From a plasmid: DNA of 64,000 bases. Within the stretch, counting starts at the first letter, position 1. Every line of letters starts with the position of its first letter. Positions 2,220 to 43,154 of the stretch are shown here, piece by piece. The DNA lies in assembly GCF_054482595.1 (NCBI RefSeq), contig NZ_JBTHVH010000004.1. One strand, written 5' to 3'. The notes below the pieces were generated by a model that was not told where the DNA came from, ran no database searches, and worked only from the letters and a program-made list of their open reading frames with translations. Made by a program: the position numbers and the translations under genes.

Positions 2220-3035
2220 TCAGAAAAACTCATCGAGCATCAAATGAAACTGCAATTTATTCATATCAGGATTATCAATACCATATTTTTGAAAAAGCCG
2301 TTTCTGTAATGAAGGAGAAAATTCACCGAGGCAGTTCCATAGGATGGCAAGATCCTGGTATCGGTCTGCGATTCCGACTCGTCCAACATCAATACAACCT
2401 ATTAATTTCCCCTCGTCAAAAATAAGGTTATCAAGTGAGAAATCACCATGAGTGACGACTGAATCCGGTGAGAATGGCAAAAGCTTATGCATTTCTTTCC
2501 AGACTTGTTCAACAGGCCAGCCATTACGCTCGTCATCAAAATCACTCGCATCAACCAAACCGTTATTCATTCGTGATTGCGCCTGAGCGAGACGAAATAC
2601 GCGATCGCTGTTAAAAGGACAATTACTAACAGGAATCGAATGCAACCGGCGCAGGAACGCTGCCAGCGCATCAACAATATTTTCACCTGAATCAGGATAT
2701 TCTTCTAATACCTGGAATGCTGTTTTCCCGGGGAGCGCAGTGGTGAGTAACCATGCATCATCAGGAGTACGGATAAAATGCTTGATGGTCGGAAGAGGCA
2801 TAAATGCCGTCAGCCAGTTTAGTCTGACCATCTCATCTGTAACATCATTGGCAACGCTACCTTTGCCATGTTTCAGAAACAACTCTGGCGCATCGGGCTT
2901 CCCATACAATCGATAGATTGTCGCACCTGATTGCCCGACATTATCGCGAGCCCATTTATACCCATATAAATCAGCATCCAGGTTGGAATTTAATCGCGGC
3001 CTCGAGCAAGACGTTTCCCGTTGAATATGGCTCAT
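2220..3035 (-). CDS. aph(3')-Ia: Aminoglycoside 3'-phosphotransferase APH(3')-Ia (kanamycin/neomycin resistance, Tn903 type)
   Basis: 271-aa ORF MSHIQRETSCSRPRLNSN...HLMLDEFF, recalled as near-identical to Tn903 aphA1. Confidence 0.95.
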   Translation of the reverse strand: MSHIQRETSCSRPRLNSNLDADLYGYKWARDNVGQSGATIYRLYGKPDAPELFLKHGKGSVANDVTDEMVRLNWLTAFMPLPTIKHFIRTPDDAWLLTTALPGKTAFQVLEEYPDSGENIVDALAAFLRRLHSIPVSNCPFNSDRVFRLAQAQSRMNNGLVDASDFDDERNGWPVEQVWKEMHKLLPFSPDSVVTHGDFSLDNLIFDEGKLIGCIDVGRVGIADRYQDLAILWNCLGEFSPSLQKRLFQKYGIDNPDMNKLQFHLMLDEFF

Positions 3036-3370: not shown

Positions 3371-4207
3371 CTAGTATGACGTCTGTCGCACCTGCTTGAT
3401 CGCGGCCGCGATAGCTAGATCGCGTTGCTCCTCTTCTCCATCCGCGTTCCAAGCTGCGGAAAGGCACCCATAAGCGTACGCCTGGTCGAGCAGGCGACGC
3501 GGATCGACGTCCAGCGCACGAGAGAATGCGTCCGCCATCTGTGCAATGCGTCTAGGATCGAGACAAAGGTCGTCTCTGTCAGCCGGATCGTAGAACATAT
3601 TGGCGGCGCCAAAGCCCACTTCACCGACCAGACCGACGGGATCTATCACCAGCCAGCCGCGACTGGAGAACATGATGTTTTCATGATGCAGATCGCCATG
3701 TAGCCCACGCAGTTCCGAGGCATTGCTCATCATTTGATCGGCTATAATCGCCGCGTGGACGTAGTCAGTTTGACAACCTGCGTTTTGATCATCGCGCGCC
3801 CGCTGAAACAAAGCTGCAAAGCGATCCCGGATCGGGAGAAGGGCAGAAGGCAGGGGTTCCTCAGATGCGGCATACAGCTTCGCCATTAGTTCCGCTGCAA
3901 TTTCGGTCGCCTGGTAGTCGCCGTGCTCGGCAACGATGTGAGAGAGCATTCGCTCCCCGGCATATTCGAGCAACATCAGATTGTTCTCACGACCGAGCAA
4001 CCGGACTGCTCCCCTCCCATTGCGCCATACCAGATAGTCGGCCCCGCGCAGTTCATCAGCAATGTCTTCTATAGGTTTCAATTCCTTGACGATTGCAGGA
4101 GTCCCGTCTGGCAATGAAACTTTCCAAACGAGGCTGGAAAAGGTGTCCGCAATGAGAACAGGTTGCGAAACGTGCCAATGAGCAGGAAAAACAGGCGGCA
4201 TGAACAT
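3371..4207 (-). CDS. strB: Aminoglycoside 6-phosphotransferase APH(6)-Id (StrB)
   Basis: ORF track 3371..4216; 278 aa from MFMPPVFPAHWHVSQPV... to ...AIKQVRQTSY; ATG overlaps strA stop by 1 nt. Confidence 0.95.
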   Translation of the reverse strand: MFMPPVFPAHWHVSQPVLIADTFSSLVWKVSLPDGTPAIVKELKPIEDIADELRGADYLVWRNGRGAVRLLGRENNLMLLEYAGERMLSHIVAEHGDYQATEIAAELMAKLYAASEEPLPSALLPIRDRFAALFQRARDDQNAGCQTDYVHAAIIADQMMSNASELRGLHGDLHHENIMFSSRGWLVIDPVGLVGEVGFGAANMFYDPADRDDLCLDPRRIAQMADAFSRALDVDPRRLLDQAYAYGCLSAAWNADGEEEQRDLAIAAAIKQVRQTSY

Positions 4208-5010
4208 CAACCCCAAGTCAGAGGGTCCAATCGCAGATAGAAGGCAAGGCGTTCGCGGTCGGGGGCTTCGATCCCCAATACATTGAATAGGACAGCGAAG
4301 GCGCGCTCTGCTTCATCTGGCGCTGCCCAGTTCTCTTCGGCGTTAGCAATCATGAGTGCCAAATCGGCATAGCGATCTGCTGTTCCGAGCCGCCCAAGGT
4401 CGATCAGACCCGTGCATTGAAGAGTTTTAGGGTCCACCATGAAGTTCGGCATGCAGGGATCACCATGGCAAACAACCATATCGGTGCGCTCTTGGTCGAG
4501 CCGCACCGGTAGCTCTCGTTCGACACGAGCCAAAAGATCGAGCTGCGGCGTACTCTTGTCCTCGTCCGGTAAGAAGTCGGGATTGACGGCATTGCGGGAC
4601 ACCACATCAACGGCGCGTCCGAACATTCGCGACAGCCTGCGCTCAAACGGACATTGATCAACCGATAGGCTGTGAACAGCGCCAAGTTGCTGCCCCATTG
4701 ACGGCCACGCTTTGAGCAAATCCGCTCCAGACAGATCAGCCGCCGGTACTCCCGGAATTGCCGTTATCACCAAGCATGCACCCTCCTGTTCCTCCTGCCA
4801 GTTGATCACCTCGGGGCAAGCCACACCTCGACCTTTGAGCCAAATGAGGCGGTCACGCTCTCCAGCGAGCTCACCGCGGCGGGAAGCAGGTGCGATTTTC
4901 GCGAAGGCATGCCCGTCACCACGTCGAAAAACAAAATCACCAGATTCTCCGCCTCTGACAGGCAACCAGTCAGAATGCGATTCACCAAAAAAAATATTAG
5001 TTCGATTCAA
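4207..5010 (-). CDS. strA: Aminoglycoside 3''-phosphotransferase APH(3'')-Ib (StrA)
   Basis: 267 aa from TTG start (LNRTNIFFGESHSDWLPV...) to ...YLRLDPLTWG; ORF track 4207..5196 is a longer upstream-extended frame. Confidence 0.95.
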   Translation of the reverse strand: MNRTNIFFGESHSDWLPVRGGESGDFVFRRGDGHAFAKIAPASRRGELAGERDRLIWLKGRGVACPEVINWQEEQEGACLVITAIPGVPAADLSGADLLKAWPSMGQQLGAVHSLSVDQCPFERRLSRMFGRAVDVVSRNAVNPDFLPDEDKSTPQLDLLARVERELPVRLDQERTDMVVCHGDPCMPNFMVDPKTLQCTGLIDLGRLGTADRYADLALMIANAEENWAAPDEAERAFAVLFNVLGIEAPDRERLAFYLRLDPLTWG

Positions 5011-5302
5011 TGGAGGTTCCTTCAGTTTTCTGATGAAGCGCGGAGGTGGCTCAACCTGCGAAAAGAAACGAGTTGCTATGGACTTGCACCGGTTGTGTTC
5101 CGGTCTATCTCTCATTTTAAGCGGCTTTTTTCTCAAATGCCACCGGCGATTTCCAGCCGAGTGTTGAATGTCTTCGGCGTGGATTATAAAAGCCATTTAC
5201 CCATATAATGCGCCTACTTATCAGCCTTTGGGACGTTGGGACGGTATTTTTCACTATATACCCCCAAGTTTTTAGACATGAAAAAAGGGTAATGACTCCA
5301 AC

Positions 5303-5806
5303 TTATTGATAGTGTTTTATGTTCAGATAATGCCCGATGACTTTGTCATGCAGCTCCACCGATTTTGAGAACGACAGCGACTTCCGTCCCAGCCGTGCCA
5401 GGTGCTGCCTCAGATTCAGGTTATGCCGCTCAATTCGCTGCGTATATCGCTTGCTGATTACGTGCAGCTTTCCCTTCAGGCGGGATTCATACAGCGGCCA
5501 GCCATCCGTCATCCATATCACCACGTCAAAGGGTGACAGCAGGCTCATAAGACGCCCCAGCGTCGCCATAGTGCGTTCACCGAATACGTGCGCAACAACC
5601 GTCTTCCGGAGCCTGTCATACGCGTAAAACAGCCAGCGCTGGCGCGATTTAGCCCCGACGTATCCCCACTGTTCGTCCATTTCCGCGCAGACGATGACGT
5701 CACTGCCCGGCTGTATGCGCGAGGTTACCGACTGCGGCCTGAGTTTTTTAAGTGACGTAAAATCGTGTTGAGGCCAACGCCCATAATGCGGGCTGTTGCC
5801 CGGCAT
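5303..5806 (-). CDS. insB: IS1 InsB (expressed as InsAB' by frameshifting)
   Basis: 167-aa ORF ...[37 protein letters not shown]... Confidence 0.85.
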
Positions 5807-6000
5807 CCAACGCCATTCATGGCCATATCAATGATTTTCTGGTGCGTACCGGGTTGAGAAGCGGTGTAAGTGAACTGCAGTTGCCATGTTTTACGGCAGT
5901 GAGAGCAGAGATAGCGCTGATGTCCGGCGGTGCTTTTGCCGTTACGCACCACCCCGTCAGTAGCTGAACAGGAGGGACAGCTGATAGAAACAGAAGCCAC
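5725..6000 (-). CDS. insA: IS1 InsA
   Basis: 91-aa [33 protein letters not shown]... Confidence 0.9.
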
Positions 6001-6055
6001 TGGAGCACCTCAAAAACACCATCATACACTAAATCAGTAAGTTGGCAGCATCACC

Positions 6056-6234
6056 CGACGCACTTTGCGCCGAATAAATACCTGTGACGGAAGATCACTT
6101 CGCAGAATAAATAAATCCTGGTGTCCCTGTTGATACCGGGAAGCCCTGGGCCAACTTTTGGCGAAAATGAGACGTTGATCGGCACGTAAGAGGTTCCAAC
6201 TTTCACCATAATGAAATAAGATCACTACCGGGCG
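6056..6234 (+). promoter_or_regulatory. Tn9 catA1 promoter/leader remnant; the cat coding sequence itself is absent
   Basis: Matches recalled Tn9/pACYC184 sequence between IS1 and the cat start codon (…TTTTGGCGAAAATGAGACGTTGATCGGCACGTAAGAGGTTCCAACTTTCACCATAATGAAATAAGATCACTACCGGGCG). Confidence 0.7.
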
Positions 6235-6793
6235 CTGAGAGATCCCCTCATAATTTCCCCAAAGCGTAACCATGTGTGAATAAATTTTGAGCTAGTAGGG
6301 TTGCAGCCACGAGTAAGTCTTCCCTTGTTATTGTGTAGCCAGAATGCCGCAAAACTTCCATGCCTAAGCGAACTGTTGAGAGTACGTTTCGATTTCTGAC
6401 TGTGTTAGCCTGGAAGTGCTTGTCCCAACCTTGTTTCTGAGCATGAACGCCCGCAAGCCAACATGTTAGTTGAAGCATCAGGGCGATTAGCAGCATGATA
6501 TCAAAACGCTCTGAGCTGCTCGTTCGGCTATGGCGTAGGCCTAGTCCGTAGGCAGGACTTTTCAAGTCTCGGAAGGTTTCTTCAATCTGCATTCGCTTCG
6601 AATAGATATTAACAAGTTGTTTGGGTGTTCGAATTTCAACAGGTAAGTTAGTTGCTAGAACCCATGGCTCCTTTGCCGACGCTGAGTAGATTTTAGGTGA
6701 CGGGTGGTGACAATGAGTCCGTGTCGAGCGCTGATTTTTTCGGCCTTTAGAGCGAGATTTATACAATAGAATTTGGCATGAGATTGGATTGCT
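6235..6793 (-). mobile_element. IS10 fragment (inside end plus 3' part of the transposase gene), cut by IS26
   Basis: Starts CTGAGAGATCCCCTCATAATTTCCCC (IS10 inside end); encodes the C-terminal 172 aa of an IS4-family transposase. Confidence 0.75.
6248..6766 (-). pseudogene. IS10 transposase, C-terminal fragment
   Basis: ORF ends ...TREDLLVAATLLAQNLFTHGYALGKL; 5' part removed by IS26. Confidence 0.75.
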
Positions 6794-7613
6794 GGCACTG
6801 TTGCAAAGTTAGCGATGAGGCAGCCTTTTGTCTTATTCAAAGGCCTTACATTTCAAAAACTCTGCTTACCAGGCGCATTTCGCCCAGGGGATCACCATAA
6901 TAAAATGCTGAGGCCTGGCCTTTGCGTAGTGCACGCATCACCTCAATACCTTTGATGGTGGCGTAAGCCGTCTTCATGGATTTAAATCCCAGCGTGGCGC
7001 CGATTATCCGTTTCAGTTTGCCATGATCGCATTCAATCACGTTGTTCCGGTACTTAATCTGTCGGTGTTCAACGTCAGACGGGCACCGGCCTTCGCGTTT
7101 GAGCAGAGCAAGCGCGCGACCATAGGCGGGCGCTTTATCCGTGTTGATGAATCGCGGGATCTGCCACTTCTTCACGTTGTTGAGGATTTTACCCAGAAAC
7201 CGGTATGCAGCTTTGCTGTTACGACGGGAGGAGAGATAAAAATCGACAGTGCGGCCCCGGCTGTCGACGGCCCGGTACAGATACGCCCAGCGGCCATTGA
7301 CCTTCACGTAGGTTTCATCCATGTGCCACGGGCAAAGATCGGAAGGGTTACGCCAGTACCAGCGCAGCCGTTTTTCCATTTCAGGCGCATAACGCTGAAC
7401 CCAGCGGTAAATCGTGGAGTGATCGACATTCACTCCGCGTTCAGCCAGCATCTCCTGCAGCTCACGGTAACTGATGCCGTATTTGCAGTACCAGCGTACG
7501 GCCCACAGAATGATGTCACGCTGAAAATGCCGGCCTTTGAATGGGTTCATGTGCAGCTCCATCAGCAAAAGGGGATGATAAGTTTATCACCACCGACTAT
7601 TTGCAACAGTGCC
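6794..7613 (-). mobile_element. IS26 copy 1
   Basis: 820 bp bounded by GGCACTGTTGCAAA and TTTGCAACAGTGCC. Confidence 0.97.
6846..7550 (-). CDS. tnp26: IS26 transposase Tnp26
   Basis: 234 aa from [18 protein letters not shown]... (track ORF 6846..7568 includes 6 extra upstream codons). Confidence 0.95.
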   Translation of the reverse strand: MNPFKGRHFQRDIILWAVRWYCKYGISYRELQEMLAERGVNVDHSTIYRWVQRYAPEMEKRLRWYWRNPSDLCPWHMDETYVKVNGRWAYLYRAVDSRGRTVDFYLSSRRNSKAAYRFLGKILNNVKKWQIPRFINTDKAPAYGRALALLKREGRCPSDVEHRQIKYRNNVIECDHGKLKRIIGATLGFKSMKTAYATIKGIEVMRALRKGQASAFYYGDPLGEMRLVSRVFEM

Positions 7614-7664
7614 ACTTGACCTGATAGTTTGGCTGTGAGCAATTATGTGCTTAGTGCATCTAAC
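7614..7664 (-). other. Start of class 1 integron 3'-CS (region upstream of qacEdelta1), cut by IS26
   Basis: Reverse complement GTTAGATGCACTAAGCACATAATTGCTCACAGCCAAACTATCAGGTCAAGT. Confidence 0.7.
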
Positions 7665-7702
7665 GTCAAAATCAGCGGCGCGTTTTTATGCGTCCGCTGG
7701 AT

Positions 7703-8524
7703 TTACTTGTTGTGCGGCGTCGCAGACTCATTGAACAACCTTTTTGCCTGCGCAATTACAGTTCTCGGAAGCTCGATATTCAGAGGTTCTGTCACGCTCT
7801 TGAACAATTCGAGACTCCACGTCCACGTTTGATGATAGGCTGCACATAGTGCTCTTGGTTCTGCACTGCTTGTGCATGCCAGATAGCGATTATACGAGTC
7901 CTCCGAGATATCCTTTTCGAGCGCGCGTGAAGGTGTCGGCCAGTGGTCTGTTGCCCCTTCGTGGAGTCGAACCAGCTTGAGTAGGTTTTCATGTGCTTTG
8001 CTGAGCAAAGCCCAGGCGCGAGCGTACTCTCCCCGATTTAAAAGATTGGCCCCAAAGAGCATCAGGCTGATGAGGTTCAACACAAGCCCTTCCACCAGCG
8101 GCGCGCCTTCACGTATCGGGGGACCGCCCACGAGAGCGCTTGCGTACCTTGACAACTCTCCTGATCGGTCCAACAAAACAGCCGCCTCAAGCGAGGGAAA
8201 CCACCCATAGCCTTGCCAAGTGGAAATGACCGGTATGTCCGATTTTCGCATGAAATGGAATTCACCGCGAATGCCGTTTTCAAAAAGTGCGGTGTGGTGG
8301 CCGAAGTCGTCCGGAAAGTAAGCAGCAACCGGACTTACGGCATTAAGCCACGAGCGCTGATCGAAATTTTCAAAATGGTCATCCTGGATGAACACTGCGA
8401 ATTCGATATCAGAGAACTCGTCACCCTCTCCGATAGCAAATGAGCCGAACATCAATGCCGCGATTATTCGTGCATCCTCATGACAACCTTCCTTGAAGAG
8501 TTCGATCATTTTCAGTTGAAGCAT
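7703..8524 (-). CDS. lnu(F): Lincosamide nucleotidyltransferase, Lnu(F)-type
   Basis: 273-aa ORF MLQLKMIELFKEGCHEDARIIAALMFGSFAIGEGDEFSDIEF... (NTase G-S...D-x-E motif); sits after aadA in the cassette array. Confidence 0.8.
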   Translation of the reverse strand: MLQLKMIELFKEGCHEDARIIAALMFGSFAIGEGDEFSDIEFAVFIQDDHFENFDQRSWLNAVSPVAAYFPDDFGHHTALFENGIRGEFHFMRKSDIPVISTWQGYGWFPSLEAAVLLDRSGELSRYASALVGGPPIREGAPLVEGLVLNLISLMLFGANLLNRGEYARAWALLSKAHENLLKLVRLHEGATDHWPTPSRALEKDISEDSYNRYLACTSSAEPRALCAAYHQTWTWSLELFKSVTEPLNIELPRTVIAQAKRLFNESATPHNK

Positions 8525-8655
8525 AGAAATATCCTTTTATTGAAGCCACAGATTATGAGGAAAGGTATACGCAGATTTTTGTTTTTTTTCGTCAGCACAA
8601 CGCCGGAGTTAAGCCGCCGCGCGTAGCGCGGTCGGCTTGAACGAATTGTTAGACA
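8525..8655 (-). other. aadA attC plus lnu(F) leader
   Basis: Reverse complement begins GTCTAACAATTCGTTCAAGCCGAC... (aadA attC-like imperfect palindrome). Confidence 0.6.
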
Positions 8656-9447
8656 TTATTTGCCGATTACCTTGGTGATCTCGCCTTTCACGTAGTGGAC
8701 AAATTCTTCCAACTGATCTGCGCGCGAGGCCAAGCGATCTTCTTCTTGTCCAAGATAAGCCTGTCTAGCTTCAAGTATGACGGGCTGATACTGGGCCGGC
8801 AGGCGCTCCATTGCCCAGTCGGCAGCGACATCCTTCGGCGCGATTTTGCCGGTTACTGCGCTGTACCAAATGCGGGACAACGTAAGCACTACATTTCGCT
8901 CATCGCCAGCCCAGTCGGGCGGCGAGTTCCATAGCGTTAAGGTTTCATTTAGCGCCTCAAATAGATCCTGTTCAGGAACCGGATCAAAGAGTTCCTCCGC
9001 CGCTGGACCTACCAAGGCAACGCTATGTTCTCTTGCTTTTGTCAGCAAGATAGCCAGATCAATGTCGATCGTGGCTGGCTCGAAGATACCTGCAAGAATG
9101 TCATTGCGCTGCCATTCTCCAAATTGCAGTTCGCGCTTAGCTGGATAACGCCACGGAATGATGTCGTCGTGCACAACAATGGTGACTTCTACAGCGCGGA
9201 GAATCTCGCTCTCTCCAGGGGAAGCCGAAGTTTCCAAAAGGTCGTTGATCAAAGCTCGCCGCGTTGTTTCATCAAGCCTTACGGTCACCGTAACCAGCAA
9301 ATCAATATCGCTGTATGGCTTCAGGCCGCCATCCACTGCGGAGCCGTACAAATGCACGGCCAGCAACGTTGATTCCAGATGGCGCTCAATGACGCTTAGC
9401 ACCTCTGATAGTTGGTTCGAAATTTCGATGGTCACCGCTACCCTCAT
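8656..9447 (-). CDS. aadA: Aminoglycoside (3'')(9)-adenylyltransferase AadA; aadA2-type N-terminus on an aadA1-type body
   Basis: 263 aa from MRVAVTIEISNQLSEVLSVIERHLES...; from about residue 55 identical to the aadA1 copy at 39702..40493 except ...KVIGK tail. Confidence 0.85.
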   Translation of the reverse strand: MRVAVTIEISNQLSEVLSVIERHLESTLLAVHLYGSAVDGGLKPYSDIDLLVTVTVRLDETTRRALINDLLETSASPGESEILRAVEVTIVVHDDIIPWRYPAKRELQFGEWQRNDILAGIFEPATIDIDLAILLTKAREHSVALVGPAAEELFDPVPEQDLFEALNETLTLWNSPPDWAGDERNVVLTLSRIWYSAVTGKIAPKDVAADWAMERLPAQYQPVILEARQAYLGQEEDRLASRADQLEEFVHYVKGEITKVIGK

Positions 9448-9595
9448 GATGTCTAACTTTGTTTTAGGGCGACTGCCCTGCTGCGTAACATCGTTGCTGC
9501 TCCATAACATCAAACATCGACCCACGGCGTAACGCGCTTGCTGCTTGGATGCCCGAGGCATAGACTGTACCCCAAAAAAACAGTCATAACAAGCC
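9448..9595 (-). promoter_or_regulatory. attI1 and 5'-CS leader of class 1 integron
   Basis: ...GCCCTAAAACAAAGTTAGAC immediately before aadA ATG; lies between aadA and the intI1 start. Confidence 0.75.
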
Positions 9596-9716
9596 ATGAA
9601 AACCGCCACTGCGCCGTTACCACCGCTGCGTTCGGTCAAGGTTCTGGACCAGTTGCGTGAGCGCATACGCTACTTGCATTACAGCTTACGAACCGAACAG
9701 GCTTATGTCCACTGGG
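9596..9716 (+). pseudogene. intI1: intI1, first 40 codons only (truncated by IS26)
   Basis: ATGAAAACCGCCACTGCGCCGTTACCACCG... identical to the start of the intI1 copy at 43780. Confidence 0.9.
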
Positions 9717-10536
9717 GGCACTGTTGCAAATAGTCGGTGGTGATAAACTTATCATCCCCTTTTGCTGATGGAGCTGCACATGAACCCATTCAAAGGCCGG
9801 CATTTTCAGCGTGACATCATTCTGTGGGCCGTACGCTGGTACTGCAAATACGGCATCAGTTACCGTGAGCTGCAGGAGATGCTGGCTGAACGCGGAGTGA
9901 ATGTCGATCACTCCACGATTTACCGCTGGGTTCAGCGTTATGCGCCTGAAATGGAAAAACGGCTGCGCTGGTACTGGCGTAACCCTTCCGATCTTTGCCC
10001 GTGGCACATGGATGAAACCTACGTGAAGGTCAATGGCCGCTGGGCGTATCTGTACCGGGCCGTCGACAGCCGGGGCCGCACTGTCGATTTTTATCTCTCC
10101 TCCCGTCGTAACAGCAAAGCTGCATACCGGTTTCTGGGTAAAATCCTCAACAACGTGAAGAAGTGGCAGATCCCGCGATTCATCAACACGGATAAAGCGC
10201 CCGCCTATGGTCGCGCGCTTGCTCTGCTCAAACGCGAAGGCCGGTGCCCGTCTGACGTTGAACACCGACAGATTAAGTACCGGAACAACGTGATTGAATG
10301 CGATCATGGCAAACTGAAACGGATAATCGGCGCCACGCTGGGATTTAAATCCATGAAGACGGCTTACGCCACCATCAAAGGTATTGAGGTGATGCGTGCA
10401 CTACGCAAAGGCCAGGCCTCAGCATTTTATTATGGTGATCCCCTGGGCGAAATGCGCCTGGTAAGCAGAGTTTTTGAAATGTAAGGCCTTTGAATAAGAC
10501 AAAAGGCTGCCTCATCGCTAACTTTGCAACAGTGCC
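9717..10536 (+). mobile_element. IS26 copy 2
   Basis: 820 bp with IS26 terminal IRs. Confidence 0.97.
9780..10484 (+). CDS. tnp26: IS26 transposase Tnp26
   Basis: 234 aa MNPFKGRHF... Confidence 0.95.
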   Translation: MNPFKGRHFQRDIILWAVRWYCKYGISYRELQEMLAERGVNVDHSTIYRWVQRYAPEMEKRLRWYWRNPSDLCPWHMDETYVKVNGRWAYLYRAVDSRGRTVDFYLSSRRNSKAAYRFLGKILNNVKKWQIPRFINTDKAPAYGRALALLKREGRCPSDVEHRQIKYRNNVIECDHGKLKRIIGATLGFKSMKTAYATIKGIEVMRALRKGQASAFYYGDPLGEMRLVSRVFEM

Positions 10537-13033: not shown

Positions 13034-14594
<1,561 letters not shown>

Positions 14595-16988: not shown

Positions 16989-17808
16989 GGCACTGTTGCA
17001 AATAGTCGGTGGTGATAAACTTATCATCCCCTTTTGCTGATGGAGCTGCACATGAACCCATTCAAAGGCCGGCATTTTCAGCGTGACATCATTCTGTGGG
17101 CCGTACGCTGGTACTGCAAATACGGCATCAGTTACCGTGAGCTGCAGGAGATGCTGGCTGAACGCGGAGTGAATGTCGATCACTCCACGATTTACCGCTG
17201 GGTTCAGCGTTATGCGCCTGAAATGGAAAAACGGCTGCGCTGGTACTGGCGTAACCCTTCCGATCTTTGCCCGTGGCACATGGATGAAACCTACGTGAAG
17301 GTCAATGGCCGCTGGGCGTATCTGTACCGGGCCGTCGACAGCCGGGGCCGCACTGTCGATTTTTATCTCTCCTCCCGTCGTAACAGCAAAGCTGCATACC
17401 GGTTTCTGGGTAAAATCCTCAACAACGTGAAGAAGTGGCAGATCCCGCGATTCATCAACACGGATAAAGCGCCCGCCTATGGTCGCGCGCTTGCTCTGCT
17501 CAAACGCGAAGGCCGGTGCCCGTCTGACGTTGAACACCGACAGATTAAGTACCGGAACAACGTGATTGAATGCGATCATGGCAAACTGAAACGGATAATC
17601 GGCGCCACGCTGGGATTTAAATCCATGAAGACGGCTTACGCCACCATCAAAGGTATTGAGGTGATGCGTGCACTACGCAAAGGCCAGGCCTCAGCATTTT
17701 ATTATGGTGATCCCCTGGGCGAAATGCGCCTGGTAAGCAGAGTTTTTGAAATGTAAGGCCTTTGAATAAGACAAAAGGCTGCCTCATCGCTAACTTTGCA
17801 ACAGTGCC
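16989..17808 (+). mobile_element. IS26 copy 4
   Basis: 820 bp with IS26 terminal IRs. Confidence 0.97.
17052..17756 (+). CDS. tnp26: IS26 transposase Tnp26
   Basis: 234 aa MNPFKGRHF... Confidence 0.95.
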   Translation: MNPFKGRHFQRDIILWAVRWYCKYGISYRELQEMLAERGVNVDHSTIYRWVQRYAPEMEKRLRWYWRNPSDLCPWHMDETYVKVNGRWAYLYRAVDSRGRTVDFYLSSRRNSKAAYRFLGKILNNVKKWQIPRFINTDKAPAYGRALALLKREGRCPSDVEHRQIKYRNNVIECDHGKLKRIIGATLGFKSMKTAYATIKGIEVMRALRKGQASAFYYGDPLGEMRLVSRVFEM

Positions 17809-37731: not shown

Positions 37732-38970
<1,239 letters not shown>

Positions 38971-39153
38971 GTCCTGCGAATATGTGAGTTTTGACCTAAT
39001 GAGCCACAAAAACTCATTTTCGCCCACGATAATTTTTCTACTTCCTTTCTTTGGAATGCTCATTTCAATATTCACATAACGTCGCTATCAATCGCGGAAA
39101 AGGCGTAGTGCGCGAAGCGAACGAAGCTTTTTGCCGTCGATTGCATAGCTTTG

Positions 39154-39636
39154 TTAACCCTTTTTCCAAATTTGATAGCAATAGTTAATGTTTGAAGTAA
39201 AGTGTTGCTCAAAAACAACTTCGAAGGTATTTGGAATACTCGGGAAGAAAACATCCCCCTCTGGCTCGATGTCGATCGTCGATAAGTGGAGCGTAGAGGC
39301 CATGGGTAATGTTTCTCGGTAAATTTCTCCGCCACCAGACACTATAACGTGACCGGTGAATTCAGCTAGCCTGTCCATGGCCTCTTCGATTGACTGAAAT
39401 ACAACTACATTGTCATCATTTGATGTCCAACCTGAGCGGGTAACGACCGCGTATTTCCTATTGGGGAGTGCGCCCATAGATTCAAACGTCTTGCGACCCA
39501 CCAGAAGCCACTGATTGTAGGTCAATGCTTTAAAAAGTAGCTGCTCCCCTTTCGCGGACCAGGGTATGTCTGGACCGCAACCAATCACGCCGTTTTTCGC
39601 TTTCGCAGCCATCAATGATACTTTCAAGGTTCTCAT
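39154..39636 (-). CDS. dfrA14: Trimethoprim-resistant dihydrofolate reductase, DfrA14-like (DfrA5/14 group)
   Basis: 160-aa [71 protein letters not shown]...; true start may be a few codons in. Confidence 0.8.
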
Positions 39637-39701
39637 CCTGGGTTAACGCTTGAGTTAAGCCGCGCCGCGAAGCGGCGTCGGCTTGAACGAATTGTTAGAC
39701 A

Positions 39702-40493
39702 TTATTTGCCGACTACCTTGGTGATCTCGCCTTTCACGTAGTGAACAAATTCTTCCAACTGATCTGCGCGCGAGGCCAAGCGATCTTCTTCTTGTCCAAG
39801 ATAAGCCTGTCTAGCTTCAAGTATGACGGGCTGATACTGGGCCGGCAGGCGCTCCATTGCCCAGTCGGCAGCGACATCCTTCGGCGCGATTTTGCCGGTT
39901 ACTGCGCTGTACCAAATGCGGGACAACGTAAGCACTACATTTCGCTCATCGCCAGCCCAGTCGGGCGGCGAGTTCCATAGCGTTAAGGTTTCATTTAGCG
40001 CCTCAAATAGATCCTGTTCAGGAACCGGATCAAAGAGTTCCTCCGCCGCTGGACCTACCAAGGCAACGCTATGTTCTCTTGCTTTTGTCAGCAAGATAGC
40101 CAGATCAATGTCGATCGTGGCTGGCTCGAAGATACCTGCAAGAATGTCATTGCGCTGCCATTCTCCAAATTGCAGTTCGCGCTTAGCTGGATAACGCCAC
40201 GGAATGATGTCGTCGTGCACAACAATGGTGACTTCTACAGCGCGGAGAATCTCGCTCTCTCCAGGGGAAGCCGAAGTTTCCAAAAGGTCGTTGATCAAAG
40301 CTCGCCGCGTTGTTTCATCAAGCCTTACGGTCACCGTAACCAGCAAATCAATATCACTGTGTGGCTTCAGGCCGCCATCCACTGCGGAGCCGTACAAATG
40401 TACGGCCAGCAACGTCGGTTCGAGATGGCGCTCGATGACGCCAACTACCTCTGATAGTTGAGTCGATACTTCGGCGATCACCACTTCCCTCAT
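39702..40493 (-). CDS. aadA1: Aminoglycoside (3'')(9)-adenylyltransferase AadA1
   Basis: 263 aa from MREVVIAEVSTQLSEVVGVIERHLEP... to ...VKGEITKVVGK; 16 bp after blaOXA-10 (fused cassette). Confidence 0.9.
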   Translation of the reverse strand: MREVVIAEVSTQLSEVVGVIERHLEPTLLAVHLYGSAVDGGLKPHSDIDLLVTVTVRLDETTRRALINDLLETSASPGESEILRAVEVTIVVHDDIIPWRYPAKRELQFGEWQRNDILAGIFEPATIDIDLAILLTKAREHSVALVGPAAEELFDPVPEQDLFEALNETLTLWNSPPDWAGDERNVVLTLSRIWYSAVTGKIAPKDVAADWAMERLPAQYQPVILEARQAYLGQEEDRLASRADQLEEFVHYVKGEITKVVGK

Positions 40494-40509
40494 GATGTTT
40501 AACTTTGTT

Positions 40510-41310
40510 TTAGCCACCAATGATGCCCTCACTTTCCATGATTTTGGTGGGAATGGATTTTCTTAGCGGCAACTTACTTTCGTTGTCTATATCCATGTTA
40601 AAGGCGAAAAAGTAAACCTCTGTCTCCTTCTCAACCCACCCAACCCACCATGCGACACCAGGATTTGACTCAGTTCCCACACCAGAAAAACCAGTTTTTG
40701 AATGCACTAGATATTCAGGTGCCGCCTCCGTTACCAAAGCCTCTTTTACTATTAGCTGGTTTTCTTTAGATGCTGACAATTTATTTAAATATAGAGACTC
40801 TAGAAACTCCACTTGATTAACTGCGGAAATTCTAAGCTGGCCTTCCAACCAGAATTTGTCAATGCCACCACTGATATTCTGGTTGCCATAGGAAAATTTT
40901 TTAAGGTATTTCTGCATTCTTACTTCGCCAACTTCTCTGGCGATTTGTTGAAATACGGGAACAGCTGAAACTTGTATTGCCCCTCTTAAGGTCAAGTCTC
41001 TTTCCCATTGCTTCATGGCTCTTGGCTTTCCGTCCCATTTGAAAACCTGATGCTCATTCTTTATGACACCAGTTTCTAGGCCGATAATTGCGTTGGGGAT
41101 CTTAAATGTTGATGCTGGAAGATATTCCTTTGATGCACGAGCTAAGTCATTGGTAGCGCAGGATTTACTGCTACTTTTACAAAGCACGAAGACACCATTG
41201 ACGGCTTCGGCAGAGAACTCTTTGTTCCAAGACGTATTTTCTGTAATTGAACCAGCTAATGCCGTACTCGAAAGACACGCGATAATTACATATGCGGCAA
41301 ATGTTTTCAT
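40510..41310 (-). CDS. blaOXA-10: Class D beta-lactamase OXA-10 family
   Basis: 266-aa [35 protein letters not shown]...STFK...KTG... Confidence 0.9.
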
Positions 41311-41574
41311 GGCACCTTCTTGGTGGCTAACGTTAATTCGACCTCAGAGGCGTTTAAGTCAAAATACCTCTGACGTCTAACATGATTAATCAAAGTCTGA
41401 TTTTTTAACAAAATCAGAAAGATAGACGCGAAACTTTAAAACAAAGGCGTCAACACTTCAAGTAGCGATCTTTCGCTTCGGCGAGGCCTAACGCCTGAGC
41501 TCAGCCGACCGAAACCGCGTAGCGGTTTTGGGTCGGCTGCAGCGATTTGTTGGGCGATAGCTTGCCACATTCTC

Positions 41575-42834
41575 TCAACGATTGGGATTTGATGTACTTT
41601 CCGCACTTTGTAGCGCGACCACATCATGCTCCCCCTGGCCGCGAGAGCCCTTCACTCGGGAAACACAAGACAGACCGAGCACGACTGTTGCAAGGGTCAA
41701 ACAGTACACGACAACCGGCCAAGCCGTGTTGCGCGGCAACAGCGAAATGATCAACGTTCCGATGCTTCCTAGCAGTACACCGCCCAAGCAGAAGTAGACT
41801 GCCGTGACCGTTCCAGCAACATGGTCGAATCCTCGAAGAGCGCCATTGGGCGACACAGATACCGCTGTGGCGACACCAATACCCACTAGCCACATTGGAG
41901 CAATAAAGCCTAACACGGACTGCGAAGCCCATATTTCGGTGATGGCAAGCAATACTGCTCCAGCTATCAGGCATCCCATTCCCATTCGCAAGACACTTGG
42001 GCTGCCCCACTTGGGTATCACACGCCCCATAAAACGAGCCGTAAACACCATGGCAATTGCCACTGTGGCGAACAGCAGGCTGAAGCCAAGCTGAGACACA
42101 CCTTGCCTGCCCATCATTAGTCCGGGCGCAATGGAGAAAAAGACGAAGAAGCTACCCATTCCAGCGGCGTAACACAACGTGTACAACCAGAAGTTCAGGC
42201 ACTTAACGGGGAGTAGCAGCTGCGACCATTGCAAGCCCGCAACTCGTTGCACCCGGGTTTCAGGCCAGAATCGCCACGCTGCTGCAGATGCAGCGATCAT
42301 GCCCAAACCTAGAAACGCAAAGATAGCCCGCCACCCAAGCCACATGTCGACGAGCGCTCCGAGCAATGGGCCTACCGCCGGGACCATGGCCAGCATGGAT
42401 CCGAGTATGCCGTAAATGACATTACTTTCCTCGCGACCTGCGTAAATGTCACGTACTGTTGCAAATGTGGAAACAAGGCACGCCGAGGCACCACAAGCCT
42501 GAAGAATCCGAAGCCCCAGAAAGACTTCAGCCGATGACGTAAGAGCGAGGCCCATTGACGCCACAACGTAGGCGAGGCCACCTCCCAGTAGAACGGGGCG
42601 GCGCCCCAGTCGGTCCGATAGCGGTCCAAACAAGAGCTGACCGGCACCAATCATGACCAAGTACGTTGTCAGCGTAAGCTGAATTGTGCTCGCTGTCGTA
42701 CCAAGCGCGTTTGGCATAAACGGCACTGCTGGCAAGTACATGTCCATGCCGAGTGATGCCAATAAATCGAACGGTGATAACAACAACACCGTGGCGGCAA
42801 GGGAGTACCGCCAACTAAAGTTTTTTGAGCGCAC
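41575..42834 (-). CDS. cmlA: Chloramphenicol efflux MFS transporter CmlA
   Basis: 419 aa from GTG start (RSKNFSWRYSLAATVLLLSPFD...); track ORF 41575..42882 is a longer upstream frame. Confidence 0.9.
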   Translation of the reverse strand: MRSKNFSWRYSLAATVLLLSPFDLLASLGMDMYLPAVPFMPNALGTTASTIQLTLTTYLVMIGAGQLLFGPLSDRLGRRPVLLGGGLAYVVASMGLALTSSAEVFLGLRILQACGASACLVSTFATVRDIYAGREESNVIYGILGSMLAMVPAVGPLLGALVDMWLGWRAIFAFLGLGMIAASAAAWRFWPETRVQRVAGLQWSQLLLPVKCLNFWLYTLCYAAGMGSFFVFFSIAPGLMMGRQGVSQLGFSLLFATVAIAMVFTARFMGRVIPKWGSPSVLRMGMGCLIAGAVLLAITEIWASQSVLGFIAPMWLVGIGVATAVSVSPNGALRGFDHVAGTVTAVYFCLGGVLLGSIGTLIISLLPRNTAWPVVVYCLTLATVVLGLSCVSRVKGSRGQGEHDVVALQSAESTSNPNR

Positions 42835-43154
42835 GAAACCATCTCCTTGAACAAAGGATTTGGCGGCGCTCCCGTAGAGCAAAAGGATTCATGAGAACGC
42901 CGCAACAACCGAAAAATGAAGGTTGCTGCGGCTTACTTGTCTGCGTTCTTGGAAGTGCTCATCTGCTGACTATCTCATGATTGAATTTGAATCGTAACAA
43001 CTTTCAAGCAACTCTGCGAGGAGCCTTATTGTGCGCCCAACGCCGCCATAAACGGCGACAGGGTGGCGCGCCTATTGCGCATAAAATGGCGAAGCCATGC
43101 GCAACAGGCGCGGAATCTCTGGCGTCCGGTTTGATGGCTTTGTTATGCAAAGGA

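Follow-up and report, generated by a model that had tools for sequence, protein, structure and literature searches.

Complexes of IS26 and class 1 integrons on IncHI2-type plasmids have been extensively described (PMC6206278, PMC8407110). In these IS26-truncated integrons the 5'-CS and/or the 3'-CS is cut by IS26, target-site duplications are absent, identical copies of IS26 are numerous and resistance modules are bounded by IS26. The locus analysed here shares all of these properties and shows no difference in kind; its IS26 breakpoint at nucleotide (nt) 121 of intI1 is unmatched in the collections that we searched. Closer relatives are known for each of the two integrons found in our window, by which we mean the whole 64-kb stretch of DNA that was analysed. 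For the first, integron A, these are the plasmids pYUYZMCS14-1, pNDM33-1 and pE-T84-1-mcr-1, which have the same cassettes, the same IS26/3'-CS junction and the same 5'-CS with PcW and P2, whereas their intI1 remnants are 798, 798 and 538 nt long respectively, against 121 nt in the window. For the second, integron B, it is the WP_024166810.1 module IS26-intI1-arr-2-cmlA5-blaOXA-10-aadA1-dfrA14-IS26, with which integron B shares the same protein and from which it shows no difference. IntegronFinder uses the term CALIN for attC sites that occur in a cluster with no integron integrase. Integron A is like a CALIN in having attC cassettes and no functional integrase, but differs in retaining attI1, Pc and P2, and is better described as a decapitated mobile integron than as a bare attC cluster.

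The explanation that best accounts for the locus as a whole, and which is very probably correct, is that the window contains two unrelated class 1 integrons, each bounded by IS26 on its integrase side, of which A is integrase-less and B encodes an integrase fusion. The form of the P2 promoter differs between A and B, so that they are not duplicates of each other, and a k-mer scan found no further intI1 fragments in the 64-kb window besides the two copies. The original prediction that both integrases are clipped by IS26, one of them to a stub of 121 bp and 40 codons, holds to the exact base, as IS26 repeats abut intI1 at 9717 and at 44786. The finding is accurate and also ordinary: clipped integrases are the routine, well-documented state of such regions, and the significance of this pair lies in little beyond correct annotation.

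Seven identical 820-bp copies of IS26 are present in the window. They have the 820-bp length, the 14-bp terminal inverted repeats and the single transposase gene of this element, and the transposase is annotated as IS26 family in related sequences. Within the window the 14-nt repeat is found at 17 places, compared with 0 expected by chance. An 819-bp element at 56908..57726 also carries the IS26 14-nt terminal repeats, but at about 75% identity it is a different member of the IS6 family, and a lone repeat match at 47524 is 14 nt only.

Integron A (7614..9716) and the two IS26 copies that bound it are composed of the following features.

6794..7613, minus strand: IS26 at the 3'-CS end of integron A, 820 bp, with the same sequence as the other copies
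7614..7663, minus strand: start of the 3'-CS, 50 nt, cut by IS26; identical to the segment preceding qacEdelta1 in a standard integron (L016)
7658..7715, minus strand: attC of lnu(F), ending GTTAGAT
7703..8524, minus strand: lnu(F) cassette coding region, annotated lnu(F)/linG in relatives (99.6% identity)
8595..8654, minus strand: attC of aadA22, GTCTAAC ... GTTGTGC
8656..9447, minus strand: aadA22 cassette coding region, annotated AadA22 in PLSDB relatives (100% identity)
9454..9520, minus strand: complete attI1, with the cassette junction G/TTAGAC beside aadA22
9564..9592, minus strand: P2 in its active form, TTGTTA-17 nt-TACAGT, made by a GGG insertion
9596..9716, plus strand: intI1 stub, recognised by identity to the second copy and by its NF011946 match
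9683..9711, minus strand: PcW inside the stub, TGGACA-17 nt-TAAGCT, exact motif
9717..10536, plus strand: IS26 clipping intI1 at nt 121, with its transposase-proximal end (IRL) abutting the stub; also the left IS26 of the fosA3 module

The stub has its ATG at 9596 and its last intI1 base at 9716, and encodes M1 to W40 plus one base (40 codons plus 1 nt). Its sequence is identical to nt 1-121 of the second intI1 copy. Directly after it, at 9717, begins GGCACTGTTGCAAA, the 14-nt terminal inverted repeat of IS26. The 8-nt flanks of this IS26 are CCACTGGG and GTAAAGGC, and there is no target-site duplication. For the assessment of the two integrases we used the NCBIfam model NF011946 'integron integrase', an equivalog model for the integron integrase IntI1 with a cut-off of 435 bits. 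The stub matches profile positions 1-41 of 337 with 81 bits, and with only codons 1-40 integron A lacks the functional intI1 of a class 1 integron. The other elements expected of a class 1 integron are present, namely attI1 beside the first cassette, a Pc promoter and cassettes that end in attC sites. The 3'-CS (qacEdelta1-sul1) typical of clinical class 1 integrons is represented by its first 50 nt only, which in the standard integron sit between the last cassette and qacEdelta1; beyond these 50 nt the window contains no qacEdelta1, sul1 or other 3'-CS sequence. The same 50 nt are found in 1872 of 5426 E. coli genomes. The IS26 at 6794..7613 has no target-site duplication, and its junction with the 3'-CS is common to many PLSDB relatives. 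The two copies that flank integron A are not in direct orientation, with 6794 on the minus and 9717 on the plus strand.

PcW and P2 were recognised by their published sequences (PMC2791841, PcW from its Table 1). In integron A, 5 nt separate the end of the PcW -35 hexamer from the IS26 boundary. P2 is located between intI1 and attI1, where the form with the 17-nt spacer is present and the 14-nt form is absent. P2 is about 7 times more active than PcW, and the GGG insertion that creates it disrupts the LexA site (PMC2791841). This is consistent with the absence of the CTGT-N8-ACAG motif of a LexA box from integron A. A scan of 9400..9800 for generic sigma-70 consensus promoters flagged nothing, because both PcW and P2 are weak matches to the consensus. 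We also considered a hybrid promoter made of an IS26 -35 element (TTGCAA) and stub sequence, but inspection showed no acceptable -10 element at 16-18 nt downstream, and we reject it as a significant contributor. The recombination sites are complete. The attI1 core of integron A (9454..9470) is identical to that of integron B, and when the bottom strands of the two attC sites were folded and compared with shuffled controls, both folded better than the controls, as bulged hairpins with dG -16.1 kcal/mol and z -2.4 for aadA22, and dG -11.9 kcal/mol and z -3.5 for lnu(F).

Judged by these sequence features, integron A keeps all that is needed for expression and for serving as a substrate of IntI1. 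It would act as a fixed expression module in which PcW and the active P2 drive both cassettes, with no integrase of its own, and its rearrangement would be possible only by IntI1 in trans, or through movement or deletion by IS26. IntI1 is a diffusible recombinase and works in trans. The assays in PMC2791841 rely on trans-supplied IntI1. The cassette array had originally been called frozen. The loss of its own integrase stands, but attI1 and both attC sites are complete and thus a substrate for IntI1 acting in trans, so that "frozen" becomes a conditional statement: it applies only if the cell is without an active integron integrase, and the earlier wording was overstated. A candidate source of IntI1 in trans could be the second copy, 34 kb away on the same molecule. 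The integron A segment also stays mobile via IS26.

Integron B (38971..44785) has attI1, Pc, an intI1 promoter and a LexA box, and its main features are given below together with the flanking IS26 copies.

38151..38970, minus strand: IS26 at the dfrA14 end of integron B, directly oriented relative to the copy at 44786
38971..43657, minus strand: cassette array arr-2, cmlA5, blaOXA-10, aadA1, dfrA14
43725..43767, plus strand: intI1 promoter, TTGCTG-17-TAGACT, and intact LexA box CTGTACAAAAAAACAG
43780..44785, plus strand: intI1 of 1006 nt, codons 1-335 plus 1 nt
43780..44892, plus strand: read-through ORF of 370 aa, IntI1(1-335) plus a 35-aa IS26-encoded tail
43867..43895, minus strand: PcW, exact motif
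44786..45605, minus strand: IS26 clipping intI1 at nt 1006, with the end distal to the transposase start (IRR) abutting intI1

The P2 of integron B (43751..43776) has the inactive 14-nt spacer, and the role of the LexA site in the integron is described in PMC2791841. The second intI1 was originally said to lack just its last two codons. The codons for E336 and R337 are indeed gone, but so is the stop codon, and the open reading frame reads into IS26. Full-length IntI1 proteins end in ...PPLTSER; with the native stop codon lost, the frame continues for 35 codons into IS26 and ends at 44892. The resulting 370-aa fusion matches NF011946 over profile positions 1-336 of 337 with 797 bits against the cut-off of 435, and the six catalytic residues R146, K171, H277, R280, H303 and Y312 are all present. 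In contrast to integron A, integron B therefore has an intI1 product that matches the IntI1 equivalog model and carries the catalytic residues. Residues 1-335 of the fusion represent the consensus IntI1 R32_H39, since the full-length IntI1 proteins drawn from its cluster each depart from it at a position, or positions, of their own. R32_H39 is the most excision-proficient IntI1 variant (Jové et al., PMC2791841).

The IS26 at 44786..45605 is flanked by CACTAGTG and CGTTCTCA, without a target-site duplication. Both copies that flank integron B, at 38151 and at 44786, are on the minus strand and thus directly oriented, as in an IS26 pseudo-compound transposon or a translocatable unit. The annotation of the array was taken from pLD67-1-157kb, and the module is 100% identical in PLSDB and RefSeq sequences; at its full 6.66 kb it is 100% identical in many plasmids. 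In the identical RefSeq module of pLD67-1-157kb the aadA1 cassette (39702..40532) carries a frameshift annotation, and across assemblies the products called from it range from 263 to 276 aa.

The two junctions have very different distributions. For the searches we used 54-nt queries straddling each breakpoint, so that a match must be seeded by the junction itself. With a 341-nt junction query against PLSDB, the "100% covered" matches were joined from separate intI1 and IS26 pieces, all with different breakpoints. The junction of integron B between intI1 nt 1006 and IS26 is found in 226 PLSDB plasmids, and among the matches returned at least 167 PLSDB records carry at least 80% of the 6.66-kb integron B module. 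The exact 370-aa fusion protein occurs on 841 contigs, chromosomes included, and is identical to WP_024166810.1, which RefSeq/PGAP names "class 1 integron integrase IntI1" without a pseudogene flag. In public assemblies the nt-1006 junction is tied to at least four different cassette arrays: the arr-2 array found here, the array dfrA12, gcuF, aadA2, cmlA1, aadA1, qacH, and two short dfrA-led arrays. Three of these assemblies (L011, L012 and L014; locus 5862..7113) have the same nt-1006 junction and the same 370-aa fusion, and L012 and L014 also have the same qnrS1 context on the IS26 side of the junction. The nt-1006 fusion is an old and widely disseminated allele.

The exact nt-121 junction of integron A is absent from PLSDB and from the complete RefSeq E. 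coli genomes. The GTDB representative genomes contain no match to an exact 38-nt pattern of this junction. Neither these genomes nor the JGI metagenomes matched a gapped pattern that allows IS26 to join intI1 anywhere from nt 98 to nt 128, and the exact 45-aa ORF of the stub is not in a collection of 15 billion proteins. Closest to the junction in the window are three records in which IS26 has independently joined intI1 at nt 127, in a PcH1 integron (NZ_CP091047.1 at 2907..3033, MN657248.1 and NZ_CP180608.1), 6 nt from the breakpoint in the window. The nt-121 breakpoint is a previously uncatalogued one of a well-known kind, and with no match in the searched collections it has no placement in a lineage.

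How the stub arose can be approached through the relatives of integron A. An identical aadA22-lnu(F) array and an identical IS26/3'-CS junction are found in pYUYZMCS14-1, where the IRL of IS26 is adjacent to the 798-nt intI1 remnant, in pNDM33-1, where the remnant also ends at nt 798 and IS26 is inverted, and in pE-T84-1-mcr-1 (CP090269.1) with its 538-nt remnant. In pE-T84-1-mcr-1, around locus 4077..5480, the far flank of IS26 is the reverse complement of intI1 and ends at nt 798, which is the footprint of IS26 having inverted part of intI1 within one molecule. Intramolecular replicative transposition of IS26 is known to produce adjacent deletions and inversions and to reorganise plasmids (PMC4471558). 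The most likely route to the nt-121 stub would start from an older IS26 junction at nt 798 and proceed by stepwise adjacent deletion through this mechanism. The series of 798, 538 and 121 nt on the same array fits such repeated attacks of IS26 on intI1. Neither of the two integrase-clipping copies has the 8-bp target-site duplication of IS26, which is expected if they result from deletion, cointegrate or recombination events. Among the relatives compared we found no ancestor-descendant pair for the step from 798 to 121.

The far flank of the clipping IS26 in the window is the fosA3 module, unlike in pYUYZMCS14-1 and pE-T84-1-mcr-1. The nt-121 junction could therefore owe its origin or its present flanks to recombination between IS26 copies, or to a translocatable unit that inserted there. 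We infer that exchange between copies of IS26 has rearranged this region as well. The seven identical copies within 64 kb speak for such a history, as does the fact that the clipping IS26 is also the left copy of an IS26-fosA3-IS26 module whose two ends are directly oriented. It seems unlikely, however, that the nt-121 junction was imported or re-assorted instead of being made in place by adjacent deletion. The routes for such an import, whether homologous recombination between IS26 copies or conservative insertion of an IS26-fosA3 translocatable unit beside an existing IS26, alter the far side of IS26 and create no new breakpoint between IS26 and intI1, so that a transposition or deletion at nt 121/122 is still needed at some stage. 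The nested series of remnants, with the IRL abutting intI1 in pYUYZMCS14-1, in pE-T84-1-mcr-1 and in the window, points instead to repeated attacks by IS26. An artefact of assembly, through a collapse or misjoin across identical IS26 copies, is extremely improbable for either junction. Seven identical 820-bp repeats are hard for short-read assembly, but a misjoin would change the flank beyond IS26 and not the base-exact boundary between intI1 and the IS26 repeat, and the junction of integron B is exactly reproduced in hundreds of independent complete assemblies.

A further consideration is the point at which the stub ends. With the breakpoint 5 nt beyond the -35 hexamer, it is tempting to suggest that the stub is short through selection, IS26 deletions stopping at the -35 element of Pc since aadA22 and lnu(F) would otherwise be silenced. 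The independent nt-127 junction on a PcH1 integron in three records would agree with such a limit. We regard this explanation as unlikely. Only two such breakpoints are known and the scans of nt 98-128 in the GTDB representatives and JGI metagenomes were empty; P2 would persist even without Pc; and arrays from which IS26 has removed the entire 5'-CS are common and still expressed (PMC6206278). That the stub still has Pc does not have to mean that Pc was selected for.

A separate question is the activity of the 370-aa fusion. The C-terminus of IntI1 forms a 7-residue helix with a conserved S-P326-L-D motif, around S325-D328, which docks into the neighbouring subunit (bioRxiv 10.64898/2026.03.10.710562). 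According to this preprint IntI1 continues past the helix for 7 unstructured residues that IntI4 lacks, and unstructured extensions beyond the helix are natural in most integron integrases. Among solved structures the closest is Vibrio cholerae IntI4 (2A3V); its alignment covers residues 19-329, and it ends opposite approximately residue 330 of IntI1. In the fusion the SPLD docking motif is intact, everything through S335 is kept and, of the unstructured extension, only the two final residues give way to IS26-encoded ones. We found no activity experiment on the 370-aa fusion or on an IS26-truncated IntI1 in the literature. Retention of the catalytic residues and the docking helix, with only the unstructured end replaced, favours activity, and we lean towards the view that the fusion is still a functional recombinase. 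The original suggestion that the second copy may still be active is in this respect plausible and a reasonable one. Taken with its promoter and LexA box, the fusion is probably an SOS-inducible and at least partly active integrase.

There are reasons for caution, since 35 extra residues beside the docking element could interfere with docking or tetramer formation. The IS26 tail begins only about 7 residues past the docking helix, which must dock in the neighbouring subunit. The A321X truncation, which drops residues 321-337 including this helix, is reported to impair synapse stability and recombination, and perturbing the docking lowers both (PMC11641012; bioRxiv 10.64898/2026.03.10.710562). 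The commonest array linked to the nt-1006 junction is also invariant across many records. An inactive fusion, in which the tail blocks C-terminal docking or destabilises the protein, is therefore a possibility to be taken seriously, if a somewhat doubtful one: the catalytic residues and the docking motif are all intact, the lost residues belong to a stretch that the solved homologue lacks and that has been described as unstructured, and most integron integrases bear natural extensions past the helix. If the fusion were inactive, both arrays would be fixed in any cell without a further integron integrase. A further idea, which we consider very unlikely, is that the fusion is a selected, attenuated but active integrase in which the tail weakens docking and so cuts the fitness cost while cassette exchange is kept. 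If true, it would help to explain how this junction came to be carried by hundreds of replicons and joined to at least four different arrays. We also considered these four arrays as evidence of activity and rejected them as such, because homologous recombination in the shared 5'-CS or in IS26 explains the array diversity equally well.

For annotation, a better description of integron A than "frozen" is an expression module that lacks an integrase but has its promoters and recombination sites intact. The second integrase, currently plain IntI1 in RefSeq, would better be entered as an IS26 read-through fusion of 370 aa. Should the fusion prove active, many IS26-bounded modules that are assumed to be static would count as self-rearranging, and it could mobilise the cassettes of integrase-less arrays on the same plasmid, for example aadA22-lnu(F) here.

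The wider window is in all likelihood an IS26-rich multiresistance region of the type seen on IncHI2-type plasmids of livestock-associated E. coli and Salmonella. Its central 24 kb match IncHI2-type plasmids of these two groups of bacteria, E. coli and Salmonella, at approximately 100% identity, and its other genes include aph(3')-Ia, strA, strB, fosA3, a 5'-truncated blaTEM, qnrS1, tet(A), floR and Tn3-family transposases. The segment 9717..13853 is a typical fosA3 module between two directly oriented copies of IS26, of which the left one clips the intI1 stub; it contains a truncated TetR-like gene, a winged-helix regulator, a FidL-like gene and fosA3. The adjoining blaTEM (13854..14594) is 5'-truncated by the IS26 at 13034..13853, and the remaining ORF of 245 aa is without the signal-peptide region, so that its product is presumably non-functional. 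The IS26 at 16989..17808 has an 8-bp target-site duplication (CTTCTGGT); no other copy in the window does, and for this reason it is the only one that resembles a simple insertion.
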